Below, piece after piece: positions 27,341-47,352 of a stretch of 64,000 nt of DNA. The stretch's first letter is position 1; each line of letters begins with the position of its first letter. The notes below the pieces were generated by a model. That model did not search any database. It had not been told where the DNA came from and saw only the letters and a list, made by a program, of their open reading frames with translations. Origin of the DNA: a virus; the IMG/VR virus record IMGVR_UViG_3300008261_004773, positions 1 through 64,000 of that record, one strand, 5' to 3'. The translations under genes and the position numbers were made by a program.

Positions 27341-28054
27341 ATGAAAAAAATCACATCACTTTTACTCGTTGGTATTCTTTTTTTGGCTTCTTGTACCAAA
27401 CAAGATATTCAAACACCACAACAAACTGTTTCTGAACAGATCACATCAACATCAGTTCAAAGTAATTCAGTTTCAGAAACTCCTATGGCTTATGTGTTTA
27501 TCGAACCACAATCGAAAACGGGTTTGGTTACAAAGTACATGAAGGACACTGCTAAGGTTATCCGATTTTACTCTTTTTGGGTTGGTTTAAACTTACAACA
27601 ATCCAATGTTACTGATCTGAACAAATACATTGATATGCCTTATTGGTACAATGGTGTTCTACCAAGTGTTAGACAAGTGGAAGTACCCCAAACTTCAGGT
27701 GGTACAGATATGAATGGTAAACCTGTGGTTGCACACAATTTTAAATCTTTCATGATCCCAAAAAATACAATCAATGATTTCGTTTGGGTTACAATATTTG
27801 TTCCAACTTCATCTATGTTAAACGACACAAAACGCCAAAAAAGAATAGAGTATTCATATAAAAGAAACGGTGCGACTGCTTTGACTCAAAACTACACACT
27901 CACAGGTAGTGCACCTTACTCAGTGATTGTGAACTACACAGGTAACCGAATTCCACAAGGGACTTACCGTGTAATCTCTACTTGGACAAATACCAACATG
28001 AGAGTGAGACTTAATACGACCGACGACGTTTACTTCAGAGGTAACGGTAACTAA
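27341..28054 (+). CDS. Lipoprotein
   Basis: MKKI...LASC lipobox. Confidence 0.7.
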   Translation: MKKITSLLLVGILFLASCTKQDIQTPQQTVSEQITSTSVQSNSVSETPMAYVFIEPQSKTGLVTKYMKDTAKVIRFYSFWVGLNLQQSNVTDLNKYIDMPYWYNGVLPSVRQVEVPQTSGGTDMNGKPVVAHNFKSFMIPKNTINDFVWVTIFVPTSSMLNDTKRQKRIEYSYKRNGATALTQNYTLTGSAPYSVIVNYTGNRIPQGTYRVISTWTNTNMRVRLNTTDDVYFRGNGN

Positions 28055-28076
28055 TTGATTTGAAACAATATTTATA

Positions 28077-28109
28077 AAAACCCTGAACCTTGAACGTTTG
28101 GGGTTTTTT
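28077..28109 (+). terminator. Intrinsic terminator
   Basis: AAAACCCTGAAC/GTTTGGGGTTTT plus T tract. Confidence 0.65.
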
Positions 28110-28128
28110 ATTATCTTTGAATCAAAAT

Positions 28129-30802: not shown

Positions 30803-31498
30803 ATGAAGATTATTTTAACACCTGAAGATAAAAAGTATTTGAGATTCTACGGTAAATACATCCAATCTTATGGGGAAAAAGAAACCACATTTAGAATCGA
30901 TGATTGGAACCCTGACTACACAGATATACATGATGGAAGATTACACGCCGATGAGAATTATTACTTGGACATTCCCGAGAGAATAACACCAATCATCAGA
31001 AAAATCTCTGAGTCTTTGTCCGATTATGAACCTAATTATGAGAGTGATGATGTAGGATCAACTTGGGCGGATTTCAAAATTGATAGCCAAGACAATAGTG
31101 TTCACGTTGAATTTTGCTACAGTTATTTCACAAGGGATGAACAGGGTATGAGTTGGGATGAGGTGGAGATTTCGGCAGACGACACCCTTTCAAAAATTAT
31201 GGATGAATTGAGGGAGTCTAACGTACCATATATGTCAGTAAAATTTGATGGTAATGGTGATAGTGGATCTATCGAAGGTGCAGAGGATGAAGATGGTGCA
31301 ATTATTGATTTACCTGCAGACATTGAAGATTGGTGTTATAATCAATTGGAGAGTAATTACGGTGGATGGGAGATCAATGAAGGATCCAACGGATCTTTTA
31401 TCTTCAATACCGAAAAAAATGAAGTAATTCTTGATTTTGCGTGGAATAACGAAAATACAGAATGTGATACAATTTACGAAGAAAAGTTTGATATCTAA
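30803..31498 (+). CDS. DUF6878-like acidic protein
   Basis: FDG.GDSG ... GWEINEG. Confidence 0.6.
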   Translation: MKIILTPEDKKYLRFYGKYIQSYGEKETTFRIDDWNPDYTDIHDGRLHADENYYLDIPERITPIIRKISESLSDYEPNYESDDVGSTWADFKIDSQDNSVHVEFCYSYFTRDEQGMSWDEVEISADDTLSKIMDELRESNVPYMSVKFDGNGDSGSIEGAEDEDGAIIDLPADIEDWCYNQLESNYGGWEINEGSNGSFIFNTEKNEVILDFAWNNENTECDTIYEEKFDI

Positions 31499-31533
31499 GA
31501 AAGTTTTACTATCTTTGATATAATTATAAAAAC

Positions 31534-31680
31534 ATGAGAACTACAATGCGTCATACAGTCTTCAGTAAACAACAAGTGATTTGTTGGTACCAAGACACGC
31601 CCGTAGTTCAGAGTTAAGAATATCCTGATGTATAGTAATATACAAACCCTGAACGACAGAAATGAAGTTCGGGGTTTTTT
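31534..31680 (+). promoter_or_regulatory. Putative leader-peptide attenuator (27-aa ORF 31534..31617 plus terminator 31644..31680)
   Basis: ORF MRTTMRHTVFSKQQVICWYQDTPVVQS; terminator hairpin; antiterminator GTTCAGAGTT. Confidence 0.7.
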
Positions 31681-31726
31681 ATTTTTGGGATGTTTGGCTC
31701 TTTGGAATATTGGTTGTAAATTTGAC

Positions 31727-31799
31727 GGTCCTTTAGCTCAGTTGGAAGAGCACTTGCCTTACATGCAAGGTGTCGTAGGTTCGATTCCTACAGGGACTA
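31727..31799 (+). tRNA. tRNA-Val(TAC)
   Basis: Cloverleaf. Confidence 0.93.
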
Positions 31800-31809
31800 C
31801 AAAAAATGA

Positions 31810-31868
31810 CAAAGTCGGAAGTGAAACCTGTCCAAAGTCGGAAGTAAAAACAAGACAAAATCGGAAGT
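31810..31868 (+). repeat. Three 13-bp direct repeats CAAARTCGGAAGT, period 23
   Basis: Copies at 31810, 31833, 31856. Confidence 0.85.
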
Positions 31869-31869
31869 T

Positions 31870-32214
31870 ATGAAACCAAAACAATTACTACAGATGTGGG
31901 TTGAGAGATTCAACCAGTACGATTACGATGGATTATCTGAAATGTATTCAGAAAACGCCATCAACCATCAAACCCCATTAGGGATTCTTGAAGGTAAAGA
32001 AAAGTTGAAACAGTTTTTTAAGGAGGACTTTGAAAAACACGAGATGGTCTGTATTGTTGAAAATATTTTCGAAGATGGGAATGTCGGTATTTTGGAGTGG
32101 AAAGACCCAAAAGGGCTGAGAGGTTGTGGGTTTTTTTGGTTCGATAATGATAAAATAGTTTATCAAAGAGGGTATTGGGATAGATTAAGTTTTATGGAAC
32201 AGCAACAAAAGTAG
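31870..32214 (+). CDS. SnoaL/NTF2-like protein
   Basis: Y.E.A..HQ..G ... ILEW ... RGYWD. Confidence 0.8.
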   Translation: MKPKQLLQMWVERFNQYDYDGLSEMYSENAINHQTPLGILEGKEKLKQFFKEDFEKHEMVCIVENIFEDGNVGILEWKDPKGLRGCGFFWFDNDKIVYQRGYWDRLSFMEQQQK

Positions 32215-32217
32215 GTT

Positions 32218-32433
32218 ATGAAATATATTTTTAGAGGACATACTGTGTTTGAGTACAAACCAGATGATAAGTTTGATAAGGTAGTACAAGGTCAAATTCA
32301 TGGTGCAATTCCTGCTTTTGACTTTTGTAAGATGATTGACGAAGACTATAAATTGTTAGGAGAATTTTTCAACACAGTTTATAGGCATACTCAGGGAGAA
32401 GATGTACCTTTGGAAGATATTGAAGTTTATTAG
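32218..32433 (+). CDS. Small hypothetical protein
   Basis: ORF between SnoaL gene and tRNA-Phe. Confidence 0.55.
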   Translation: MKYIFRGHTVFEYKPDDKFDKVVQGQIHGAIPAFDFCKMIDEDYKLLGEFFNTVYRHTQGEDVPLEDIEVY

Positions 32434-32434
32434 A

Positions 32435-32507
32435 GGTGACGTAGCTCAGTTGGTAGAGCACTTGACTGAAGATCAAGGTGTCGTCAGTTCGATTCTGACC
32501 GTTACCA
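32435..32507 (+). tRNA. tRNA-Phe(GAA)
   Basis: Cloverleaf. Confidence 0.93.
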
Positions 32508-32511
32508 CGGA

Positions 32512-32612
32512 TGTTGAGTAGTGGATACGTTATTGGGCTCAAGCTCATTAAGGCGAAACGGTACGCTTCTCTTTTCGAGACCACGTTATGGGTTCGAGTC
32601 CCATCTCAACAA
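32512..32612 (+). ncRNA. tRNA-like RNA lacking canonical D and anticodon arms
   Basis: TGTTGAG/CTCAACA acceptor; ATGGG-TTCGAGT-CCCAT T arm. Confidence 0.7.
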
Positions 32613-32617
32613 CAACC

Positions 32618-32689
32618 GACCTCTTAGCTCAGTGGAAGAGCTCTTCACTTTTAATGAAGAAGTCGATGGTTCGAATCCATCAGGGGTCA
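32618..32689 (+). tRNA. tRNA-Lys(TTT)
   Basis: Cloverleaf. Confidence 0.93.
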
Positions 32690-32695
32690 CAATAA

Positions 32696-32767
32696 GGTCG
32701 AGTGGCCGAGTGGCTCAGGCGCTAGTCTGCAAAACTAGCTACCCCAGTTCGATTCTGGGTTCGACCT
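32696..32767 (+). tRNA. tRNA-Cys(GCA)
   Basis: Cloverleaf. Confidence 0.93.
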
Positions 32768-32782
32768 CGAAAAAAGAAAGTT

Positions 32783-33025
32783 ATGGAAACAGATACAAAA
32801 GTATTGGATGATTTCAGAAGGAGAATGACAAAACTTGGAATTGAATGCAAGTTTGTAGGGAATTTTCCATGGGTATATCTTGACGAGATCAATGGGAAAA
32901 GAGTTACTGAACGTTTCTGTGGTAACCATGGTTTCACAATTGCTTTCCTACCTATCCGTAAGGGACAAAAAATGAATCTCACAGATATTGGGGAGATAAT
33001 GAAAGTGGTAAGAAAGTATAGATGA
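32783..33025 (+). CDS. Small hypothetical phage protein
   Basis: GNFPWVYLDEING motif; ORF between tRNAs. Confidence 0.6.
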   Translation: METDTKVLDDFRRRMTKLGIECKFVGNFPWVYLDEINGKRVTERFCGNHGFTIAFLPIRKGQKMNLTDIGEIMKVVRKYR

Positions 33026-33031
33026 TAAAAC

Positions 33032-33104
33032 GCGTGTGTAGCTCAGCTGGAAGAGCAGTGGTCTCCAAAACCAAAGGTCGTAGGTTCGATTCCTACCATG
33101 CGTG
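33032..33104 (+). tRNA. tRNA-Trp(CCA)
   Basis: Cloverleaf. Confidence 0.93.
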
Positions 33105-33107
33105 CAA

Positions 33108-33241
33108 AAGGTTGATTGGGGAATGGTGATATCAATGACTCGAGAGTGTATTTCGGTCGGTATCATCGGAGTTGGGAGAAATACACCTGAGTAATGCCAA
33201 TCATAAAAGGGGTCGTCCACGCAACCATCTTCCCCTTTCCT
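33108..33241 (+). ncRNA. Unassigned structured RNA between tRNA-Trp and tRNA-Tyr
   Basis: TGATTGG/CCAATCA, GTGTATTTC/GAAATACAC and AAAGGGG/CCCCTTT helices. Confidence 0.6.
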
Positions 33242-33246
33242 AATTT

Positions 33247-33328
33247 GGGAGTATTGCCTAGCGGCAATGGCAGAAGACTGTAAATCTTCCCTCTTTCGAG
33301 TTCGTTGGTTCGAGTCCAGCTACTCCCA
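33247..33328 (+). tRNA. tRNA-Tyr(GTA)
   Basis: Cloverleaf with variable arm. Confidence 0.93.
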
Positions 33329-33333
33329 CTTAT

Positions 33334-33404
33334 TGTCGTATGGTGTAACGGTAACACAGCAGATTTTGGTTCTGCTTTTCAAGGTTCGAATCCTTGTGCG
33401 ACAA
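33334..33404 (+). tRNA. tRNA-Gln(TTG)
   Basis: Cloverleaf. Confidence 0.93.
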
Positions 33405-33409
33405 CTCAT

Positions 33410-33482
33410 GGTGGATGTAGTTCAGAGGAAGAACACTTGATTGTGGTTCAAGATGTCGTGGGTTCGAGTCCCATCATTCACC
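33410..33482 (+). tRNA. tRNA-His(GTG)
   Basis: Cloverleaf, G-1 and C73. Confidence 0.93.
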
Positions 33483-33488
33483 CAACAT

Positions 33489-33563
33489 TGGAATGTAGCT
33501 CAGTTGGTTTAGAGCGCTAATCTGATACGTTAGATGTCGGCGGTTCGAGTCCGCCCATTCCAA
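33489..33563 (+). tRNA. tRNA-Ile(GAT)
   Basis: Cloverleaf. Confidence 0.9.
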
Positions 33564-33570
33564 CAAAAGA

Positions 33571-33655
33571 GGAGAGTTGCCTGAGTGGTTAAAGGAGCGG
33601 TTTGCTAAACCGTGGTCGGGAAACTGATCCATTGGTTCGAATCCAATACTCTCCG
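33571..33655 (+). tRNA. tRNA-Ser(GCT)
   Basis: Cloverleaf with variable arm. Confidence 0.95.
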
Positions 33656-33705
33656 CATTTGACAATTAAAATCTATTTTACTATTATTTCATACAAACTT
33701 TTTTT

Positions 33706-34146
33706 ATGACTATCAAACAAGCTTTAAAGTACAAAAACAAACTTGCTAAGAAAATTTCTGAAGAGATGATCAAAATCTCGCATTATAACTCAATAGAAGT
33801 AGGATCTGTTCGTCCTTACGATGTTAATGAGTCTTACCAAAAATATTACACCATGGTAAATGAATTGGTGGATTTAAAAAACAAAATACATCTTGCAAAC
33901 GCACCTGTTTATTACCAAATTTTCCGTTTATCTGAATTAAAAGGAATGGTGAGTAACCTAAAACAATTGGATTGTTCTGAAGGTAAAGTTGCATCAAGAT
34001 ATGGTAGAAGTATGGGTGAAGAACCTACAATTAAGACCGCTGTAATTACAGTCAAAATGAGAGATGAGGCGGTGGAAACTTTGGAAACTGAGATTGAAAA
34101 AATTCAAGAAGAATTGGATCATCACAACGCAATTACAACAATTTAA
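33706..34146 (+). CDS. DIP1984/DUF6847-like coiled-coil protein
   Basis: M.IKQAL...LK.KI..AN ... IQEELD.HN..T pattern. Confidence 0.6.
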   Translation: MTIKQALKYKNKLAKKISEEMIKISHYNSIEVGSVRPYDVNESYQKYYTMVNELVDLKNKIHLANAPVYYQIFRLSELKGMVSNLKQLDCSEGKVASRYGRSMGEEPTIKTAVITVKMRDEAVETLETEIEKIQEELDHHNAITTI

Positions 34147-46957: not shown

Positions 46958-47352
46958 TGGTGGAGATGACGGGAGTCGAACCCGTGTCTTGTTCACGAAC
47001 ACTATAAATGACTACACGTTTAGTACAACGTTGTTTCTCAACGTTACGAAATATTAGGTTAGATATATGTGGGAAACCAACCTACAAACAACCTGGTCTC
47101 AGAATTATTTTAAACGAGCTCTGACCTGTCACCCGTATATTGGACTTCTGTTCCTAGGTTAACGTCCTAATCGACCCGATATGTTGTTCTCTACGATTAC
47201 GCAGCAACAACGCTTTCTTCACGGATAAGACCGATAGCAGAAAGTTTTGCGAAAGTTTCGCCGTTTGTGTTTCAAATCAGTTTTTAAGGAGTTAATTCAG
47301 CTCCTACGTGCCATCTATAATATCACATGCCAATCAATGCCGTGACATCCCC
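46958..47352 (-). ncRNA. ssrA: tmRNA; tag GETFAKLSAIGLIREESVVAA (47197..47262)
   Basis: GGGGATG 5' end; GGGTTCGACTCCCGTCATCTCCACCA 3' end; tag ends AA-stop. Confidence 0.93.

Follow-up and report, generated by a model that had tools for sequence, protein, structure and literature searches.

A stretch of phage DNA of 64,000 nucleotides (nt), referred to here as the window (positions 1 to 64,000 of the IMG/VR virus record IMGVR_UViG_3300008261_004773), carries a short leader open reading frame (ORF) followed by a terminator hairpin and by ten transfer RNA (tRNA) genes, and the leader contains codons for all ten of the amino acids concerned. We propose that this leader is probably a ribosome-mediated transcription attenuator of the trp/his type, which would gate read-through from an upstream promoter, P1, into the tRNA array. 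The proposal builds on the anatomy of the locus, on its conservation in related loci, on a match between leader codons and tRNA genes and on covariation of the alternative RNA helices. The 96.8-kb contig of which the window forms the first 64 kb was judged to be approximately 31% complete, which makes its source a large, uncultured phage; the window contains 23 tRNA genes and one transfer-messenger RNA (tmRNA) gene.

Anatomy of the leader locus

All elements of the locus lie on the plus strand. The putative promoter P1 (31487-31517) consists of a TTTG element at 31487-31490, a 19-nt spacer and the TAnnTTTG box at 31510-31517 that a first-pass annotation of the window had picked out. Boxes of the form TAnnTTTG characterize sigma-A promoters of Bacteroidota (PMC9723704; PMC6847099). 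Gene starts in the window are preceded by such boxes and lack Shine-Dalgarno sequences. The exact box TATCTTTG is found at 12 window sites, many of them directly 5' of tRNAs or small genes (they include 26969, 28112, 31510, 36811, 37846 on the minus strand, 42226, 49929 and 57726), and is probably the preferred promoter core of this phage. In Flavobacterium, a genus that the first-pass annotation guessed to be the host and that may not be, the sigma-A box occupies positions -12 to -5 relative to the start (PMC9723704). With this spacing, transcription from P1 is predicted to start at about 31522, giving a 12-nt A/T-rich 5' untranslated region without a Shine-Dalgarno sequence.

The leader ORF (31534-31617) runs from an ATG to a TAA and comprises 27 codons before the stop, in agreement with the first-pass annotation. 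A TAnnTTTG box 15 to 19 nt 5' of the leader ATG recurs in relatives, and this distance resembles that of ordinary genes of the window phage. Codons 7 to 20 (31552-31593), called sensor codons here, do contain the amino acids of all ten downstream tRNAs, as had been reported for this 14-codon stretch, together with one Thr; both Ser codons of the leader are indeed AGT.

Downstream of the ORF, 31644-31654 pairs with 31667-31677 in a terminator hairpin, with a T tract at 31675-31680 and then at 31682-31686. This hairpin, already seen at first pass, was missed by a consensus terminator scan because its loop exceeds the length that the scan allows. The complementarity of 31606-31615 to the 5' arm of the terminator, previously put at nine positions out of ten, was found again and extends further, to pairing of 31603-31615 with 31645-31657. 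We therefore divide the RNA into region 1 (31538-31544; codons 2 to 4), region 2 (31603-31615; the final four codons plus the first nucleotide of the TAA, forming the 5' strand of the predicted antiterminator), region 3 (31644-31657; the 5' arm of the terminator and the partner of region 2) and region 4 (31667-31686; the 3' arm of the terminator and the T tract). A 6-bp hairpin with a GNRA tetraloop (31629-31644) is located inside the antiterminator loop.

The leader belongs to a family with at least three classes

The gene upstream of the leader (30803-31498) encodes a DUF6878 protein with a graded series of homologues, the closest of which are 82 to 87% identical. An alignment of these homologues was used as a query and recovered 160 related loci from metagenome and viral contigs, which are labeled with L-numbers below. 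The alignment was required, since a single DUF6878 protein as the query found no relatives in the viral contigs; an exact back-translated leader pattern also gave zero matches there. The downstream gene (33706-34146) led to six relative loci, none of which has a tRNA array at that place, and the GenBank phage collection held no cultured relative by DNA or by DUF6878 protein.

An nhmmer profile of the segment from leader to terminator matched more than 100 of the 160 loci, many of them twice. The arrangement of leader, terminator and tRNAs exists in at least three paralogous classes, each placed before a different tRNA cluster. Class 1, the kind found in the window, precedes Glu-Val-Phe-Lys-Cys-Trp-Tyr-Met-Gln-Arg(acg)-His-Ile-Ser. 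Class 2 (for example, L099:4221-4304 and L058:4727) has a sensor made up nearly entirely of Asn, Leu, Thr, Arg, Ala, Pro, Asp and Gly and precedes Pro-Asn-Asp-Gly-Thr-Ala, often followed by Leu-Arg-Leu. Class 3 (for example, L057:1258-1326 and L105:6751-6849) has a leader with abundant Leu and Arg, and Leu(taa)-Arg(tct)-Leu(tag) follows it. Between classes, the leaders are similar in their 3' parts, where the RNA switch would be encoded, and differ in their 5' sensor parts. Coverage of the leader by its own array was 0.56 in class 1 and 0.74 in class 2, compared to 0.05 to 0.23 for arrays of other classes; ordinary phage proteins gave 0.33, 0.39 and 0.12 with the arrays of classes 1, 2 and 3, respectively. 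The three class-3 leaders had a coverage of 0.47 with their own arrays, 0.14 with class-1 arrays and 0.76 with class-2 arrays, and class-2 arrays often end with the same Leu and Arg tRNAs as class 3. Conservation of the leader, on which the first-pass annotation had made its reading depend, was apparent in class 1, where ATG, frame and stop are kept in 65 distinct leaders.

Leader codons follow the tRNA content of the array

The first-pass annotation had proposed to compare leader content with array content across related phages, and the two were found to track each other at the level of class, of tRNA gain and loss and of codon box. We examined 78 class-1 leader-array pairs, 77 of which were placed on the DUF6878 protein tree. 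When the array carried a given tRNA, the numbers of leaders with and without the amino acid were 65/0 for Glu, 30/0 for Val, 43/0 for Phe, 28/0 for Lys, 61/0 for Cys, 48/1 for Trp, 36/0 for Tyr, 41/0 for Gln, 43/0 for His and 38/0 for Ile. In phylogenetically independent pairs that differ in a tRNA, the leader difference was concordant in 18.6 and opposite in 1.7 (sign test, p = 4e-5).

Individual lineages show how closely the two are matched. The leaders of L080, L075, L153 and L076 are close to each other and contain Phe and Lys, Phe only or neither, and their arrays match. Arrays that have gained tRNA-Asn and lack Val, Phe and Lys are preceded by leaders with Asn at those positions. The lineage of the window, shared with L018, has an array without tRNA-Glu, and both Glu codons of the leader are replaced. 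Moreover, the leader ORF is destroyed in L009-L011 and in L088, where the array is reduced to Glu-Cys-Ile.

The match extends to the codon box. Before arrays with Ser(gct) only, leaders contain 27 AGY and 2 TCN codons, compared to 361 AGY and 1,306 TCN in phage genes overall, and before arrays with Ser(tga) the leader Ser codons are mostly TCN. Thirty-one AGR and no CGN codons are found with Arg(tct) arrays; Arg(acg) arrays go with 20 CGN and 10 AGR codons, compared to 165 CGN and 770 AGR in phage genes overall. The pairing of AGT with Ser(gct), noticed at first in the window alone, is a family-wide rule.

Within the decoding set of one tRNA, sensor codons vary synonymously (GAA 45 and GAG 64; AAA 47 and AAG 17), and this variation within the reach of a single tRNA points to selection on decoding rather than on RNA sequence. 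In counts uncorrected for relatedness, the sensors of the window and of the class-1 leaders in L008-L167 are skewed toward synonymous codons that are read by wobble (TTT, TAT, CAT, GAG and GTC) when compared to phage genes: TTT/TTC is 45/6 in leaders and 614/618 in phage genes, CAT/CAC is 76/2 and 194/181, GAG/GAA is 64/45 and 461/1,380, and the share of GTC among Val codons is 27 of 43 in leaders and 7% in phage genes. A bias of this kind may tune or raise the sensitivity of the sensor.

Alternative RNA helices are conserved

Folding of the two conformers, which had been suggested as a check, yielded both of them. In the minimum free energy fold of the untranslated window leader, the terminator is present and region 1 (31538-31544) is paired with 31603-31609. 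If the 5' part is masked, as a stalled ribosome would do, and region 4 is absent, 31603-31615 pairs with 31645-31657 around the GNRA hairpin at -12.4 kcal/mol; the terminator has an energy of -17.6 to -20.7 kcal/mol. These energies resemble those of the Escherichia coli trp leader. The sensor ends with its last codon 10 nt 5' of region 2. Because region 2 reaches into the stop codon, a ribosome terminating there would cover it.

In the nascent fold, 83 of 87 distinct elements pair 5 nt or more of the 5' terminator arm with a segment upstream of it; this segment is nearly always confined to the final ~27 nt of the ORF, and the pairing has a median z of -2.1 relative to dinucleotide shuffles. 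In an alignment of 55 sequences, the antiterminator helix is 91% paired, compared to 24 to 46% when it is slid, and the terminator helix is 95% paired. One antiterminator pair is GC in 30 sequences and AU in 17. The terminator partner of the covarying column stays G, forming G-C or G-U, and the covariation is thus specific to the antiterminator. Region 2 also pairs with codons 1 to 6 (region 1) in 57 of 64 distinct class-1 leaders, which would explain why Thr-Thr codons are conserved despite the lack of a downstream tRNA-Thr. Relatives retain a hairpin at the site of the GNRA hairpin, with different stem sequences. The his/trp-type geometry claimed in the first-pass annotation is therefore borne out by the predicted 1:2, 2:3 and 3:4 pairings, and a four-region switch of the trp type is, as judged from these pairings, conserved.

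A second promoter-like box lies between terminator and tRNAs

A second promoter-like element, P2 (31693-31724), follows the terminator in the window, with TTTG at 31693-31696, a 20-nt spacer and the box TAAATTTG at 31717-31724. Of 85 distinct spacers that separate the T run from the first tRNA, 77 contain a TAnnTTTG box, most often 9 nt 5' of that tRNA; in class 1, the box is preceded by a TTTG at a distance of 20 nt. For a box at -12 to -5 (PMC9723704), a distance of 9 nt from the tRNA corresponds to a transcript with a 4- to 5-nt leader. P2 is very probably a real promoter in most relatives, in which case read-through would not be the sole transcription route for most arrays.

The window itself departs from this pattern. 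The first-pass annotation had remarked that TAAATTTG seemed too close to tRNA-Val, and indeed the box lies 2 nt from it, with a predicted start at ~31729, approximately 2 nt past the beginning of the tRNA gene. L018 shares this position of the box with the window, a consequence of the loss of tRNA-Glu, and intact tRNA-Val of the window should thus depend on read-through. Furthermore, no TAnnTTTG box is found in the spacers between T run and tRNA of L054 (9 nt), L161 (16 nt) and L027 (19 nt). In these loci (L054:4452-4556, L161:111 and L027:3945), the tRNA starts 9, 16 and 19 nt after the beginning of the T run, and at least one of them leaves no room for a promoter; their arrays would most simply be reached by read-through. 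Transcription from a promoter downstream of the terminator, which the first-pass annotation had named as an outcome that would speak against attenuation, is thus suggested by the box in most spacers, and is at odds with its absence from these three loci and its misplacement in the window. A conserved, covarying antiterminator and codons that track the tRNAs would make no sense if termination were unconditional, and read-through therefore stays relevant. We consider that promoter and attenuator together probably provide a conditional input in addition to a basal promoter. Internal promoters are present in the trp and his operons too.

Proposed mechanism

In the proposed mechanism, RNA polymerase would start at about 31522 and transcribe the 27-codon leader. 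If no ribosome is loaded, region 1 (codons 2 to 4) would pair with region 2, and the terminator would form from regions 3 and 4. If translation proceeds smoothly to the stop codon, the ribosome would cover region 2, the terminator would again form and transcription would end at about 31680. A ribosome slowed at any of codons 7 to 20, which are read by the tRNAs encoded downstream, would leave region 2 free to pair with region 3 around the GNRA hairpin before region 4 is made, and the polymerase would continue into tRNA-Val and the rest of the array. More array tRNAs would then mean faster decoding and more termination, so that the attenuator would act as a demand-driven homeostat for its tRNA set. 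The readout would be the decoding rate whatever the cause of its change, be it codon-usage mismatch, loss or cleavage of host tRNAs or poor charging.

A broader reading is possible, although we hold it only tentatively and rather doubt it in full: the leaders may be modular, re-programmable and multiplexed sensors of decoding rate, tuned to the least-well-read codons, that counter the loss of host tRNAs, including that caused by anticodon nucleases. As a sensor family, they would have had their codons rewritten as tRNA genes were gained or lost; as a countermeasure, the circuit would switch on exactly the set of replacement tRNAs required. The role of anticodon nucleases is speculation, these being one of several conditions that would slow decoding, and the evidence singles none of them out.

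Weighing the attenuator against other explanations

Several points weigh against an attenuator that controls the array. The P2 box of most spacers would allow transcription that bypasses the terminator, and the ORFs inside the array, together with a box, TACCTTTG, at 32405 (22 nt 5' of tRNA-Phe), could uncouple the distal tRNAs from the attenuator. Nine of the 26 non-start codons of the window leader have no tRNA in the array (Thr four times, Arg twice, Met, Asp and Pro); post hoc, they can be explained by region 1, by the former presence of Met and Arg(acg) tRNAs and as a spacer. A codon was retained after loss of its tRNA in about half of the cases, which fits decay following release from constraint. 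GTC, the usual Val sensor codon, is not read by the anticodon UAC under strict wobble. The terminator is far more stable than the antiterminator, so that the switch must be kinetic and would require coupling of transcription and translation. Finally, it is from sequence comparison that we infer leader translation, termination and its relief, read-through and promoter activity.

The most serious competitor, which we nevertheless regard as improbable, is that leader and terminator form a separate unit whose output acts in trans, as a released attenuator RNA, as a peptide or through translation as a reporter for another phage circuit, with the array being transcribed from P2 only. The frequency and the typical position of the P2 box fit this explanation, as do the strength of the terminator and the conservation of the hairpin loop and the GNRA hairpin beyond the needs of a bare terminator. 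Trans-acting attenuator RNAs are known elsewhere, and rnTrpL and peTrpL of Sinorhizobium are reportedly an attenuator RNA and a peptide that act in trans. However, every cassette is located directly 5' of the cluster whose codons it carries and tracks the gains and losses of that cluster; in addition, L054, L161 and L027 have no TAnnTTTG box between terminator and tRNA, P2 of the window would start inside tRNA-Val, and a conserved, covarying antiterminator would lack a purpose if termination were constitutive.

Very unlikely, in our view, is an untranslated RNA whose triplets pair directly with tRNA anticodons, in the manner of a T-box or as a sponge or decoy, in order to sense uncharged tRNAs or to soak up anticodon nucleases. 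The RNA is structured and its triplets do match the anticodons of the neighboring tRNAs, choice of codon box included. On the other hand, 31484-31733 had no T-box or other Rfam match even at a permissive threshold, the start codon, frame and stop are maintained, and the ATG follows the promoter box at the distance of an ordinary gene. Many of the frequent wobble variants (TTT, TAT, CAT and GAG) are not Watson-Crick partners of the anticodon, and the sensor triplets are largely base-paired in the untranslated fold. That a short ORF with the ten amino acids stands before a terminator by chance would have been a legitimate concern from the window only, as the pattern was sought after the fact. 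In the six-frame translation of the window, stop-free 14-residue stretches with all ten amino acids occur at only two places among 62,109, the leader included, and the odds are about 1 in 100 for the ~200-nt region upstream of the array, which is suggestive and not decisive. The order Val-Phe-Lys-Cys-Trp-Tyr-Gln shared by codons and tRNAs is marginal (p of ~0.03 in the window) and was set aside as a coincidence, with p at ~0.5 in a fuller pair of the ancestral type. Chance is refuted by the comparative data, namely, by more than 100 loci, three differently programmed classes and tracking of both amino acids and codon boxes, and its probability is now negligible. The attenuator thus stays the probable explanation.

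Other elements of the array and of the window

The ten tRNAs of the array (31727-33656, plus strand) were confirmed as annotated at first pass; they are not contiguous, being interleaved with three ORFs and two conserved non-coding elements. tRNA-Val (tac; 31727-31800) is followed by a SnoaL-like ORF (31870-32214) and by an ORF without a family match (32218-32433), then by tRNA-Phe (gaa; 32435-32508), a tRNA-like RNA (32509-32617), tRNA-Lys (ttt; 32618-32690), tRNA-Cys (gca; 32696-32768), an 80-codon ORF without a family match (32783-33025), tRNA-Trp (cca; 33032-33105), a structured RNA (33107-33245) and tRNA-Tyr (gta), -Gln (ttg), -His (gtg), -Ile (gat) and -Ser (gct) (33247-33656). The tRNA-like RNA between tRNA-Phe and tRNA-Lys combines an acceptor stem of 7 bp and a T arm with a middle that is enlarged and contains three hairpins. 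It scores 26.5 bits with the Rfam tRNA model, below threshold, and is called by ARAGORN only with the intron option; it is kept in at least 10 loci, with six compensatory pairs across seven relatives. The 139-nt structured RNA between tRNA-Trp and tRNA-Tyr has no match in Rfam. It is kept in at least 40 related loci with seven compensatory pairs, and its structure comprises a closing stem, an inner hairpin in which five pairs are compensatory and a 3' hairpin whose loop is invariant.

Two further candidates at the leader locus were set aside. A small ORF (31662-31736), which has its ATG in the terminator loop and extends across P2 into tRNA-Val, is similar among class-1 relatives; it was judged to be a by-product of conserved P2 DNA because class-2 terminators lack such an ATG. 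The end of the leader resembles the start of the tRNA-His gene, and its reading as the 5' half of a decayed tRNA was rejected because the segment is region 2 of the switch, conserved and covarying.

Other tRNA clusters of the window lack an intact leader: Ser (6018), Leu-Leu (25245), Met (26981), Pro (28129), Asn (28730), Gly (37361), Thr (37828), Arg (40525), Glu (46759) and the tmRNA. Before tRNA-Pro, a remnant of a class-2 cassette was found at 28076-28119 on the plus strand, with a homologous terminator (28076-28108) and a TAnnTTTG box (28112-28119). The nhmmer match (28031-28121) covers model positions 122 to 216 only, and the end of an ordinary gene replaces the leader ORF; relatives have at this site an intact leader coded for Pro, Asn, Asp, Gly, Thr and Ala.

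The tmRNA is full length (46958-47352, minus strand; Rfam, 90.9 bits) and adjoins tRNA-Glu, with a TAnnTTTG box 20 nt upstream. On some tRNAs of relatives, ARAGORN places the labels Pyl(cta) or SeC(tca) or finds an unreadable anticodon; such tRNAs are located at L007:1446-1518, in L041 (~1,475 nt downstream of a class-2 element at 65-278) and in L094 (after tRNA-Phe). They may be suppressor tRNAs, hinting at stop-codon reassignment in part of the phage group.

Relation to known systems

Attenuators that respond to more than one amino acid are known from enterobacteria, where the thr leader reads Thr and Ile and the ilvGMEDA leader reads Ile, Leu and Val; trp, his, leu and phe operons are also attenuated. 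Like these, the phage element has a short ORF with regulatory codons, presumably translated, then an intrinsic terminator, with mutually exclusive 1:2, 2:3 and 3:4 pairings and with region 2 located where the ORF ends. The bias of the phage leaders to poorly decoded synonymous codons recalls the leu leader, which carries rare CUA codons. However, enterobacterial attenuators regulate biosynthetic enzymes, whereas the phage element would regulate tRNAs, so that the product is what the sensor reads. The phage leader samples at least 10 amino acids, mostly once each, in contrast to the runs of one to three kinds in enterobacterial leaders. It also belongs to a virus, is modular and exists in relatives as three or more differently programmed copies per genome, and it is usually followed by a putative second promoter. 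No match to the amino acid leader families of Rfam overlapped 31484-31733; weak Trp_leader and Phe_leader matches were located elsewhere and fell below threshold.

The pheST attenuator of E. coli has a leader peptide that controls a component of translation through the decoding speed of its own codons. Unlike the phage element, it regulates a synthetase, responds to a single amino acid and is cellular. T-boxes also attenuate transcription in response to the state of a specific tRNA through a codon-like specifier, but they bind one tRNA directly and without translation, by means of a Stem I specifier loop and a T-box motif; the T-box covariance model had no match in 24000-48000 at E values up to 1. 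The nearest functional parallel in print is an inducible accessory tRNA array, the trn operon (L-array) of Anabaena sp. PCC 7120, which is silent normally and induced when translation is impaired (PMC8421152). This operon is cellular and controlled by a repressor protein, TrcR (PMC10272220), with no leader peptide or codon-matched sensor. A full-text literature search gave no report of tRNA genes under the control of a leader peptide. In our judgment, the codon-matched leader-peptide attenuator of tRNA genes, as read from sequence, appears to be a real and new form of ribosome-mediated attenuation.

Phage tRNA arrays are usually viewed as constitutively expressed cargo, with the role of adjusting codon usage or of making up for host tRNAs that have been cleaved, and, to our knowledge, the control of phage tRNA genes is largely unknown. 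The leaders offer a natural experiment, since the program of each sensor can be read from its sequence and compared with the tRNAs that it would regulate across hundreds of variants, and they may serve as a compact engineering template for sensors of tRNA availability. If the proposed attenuator is true, textbook attenuation would extend from amino acid biosynthesis to the translation machinery, and the phage would measure decoding speed separately for each tRNA set and supply tRNAs on demand; how phage tRNAs respond to the depletion of host tRNAs would become a directly testable question.

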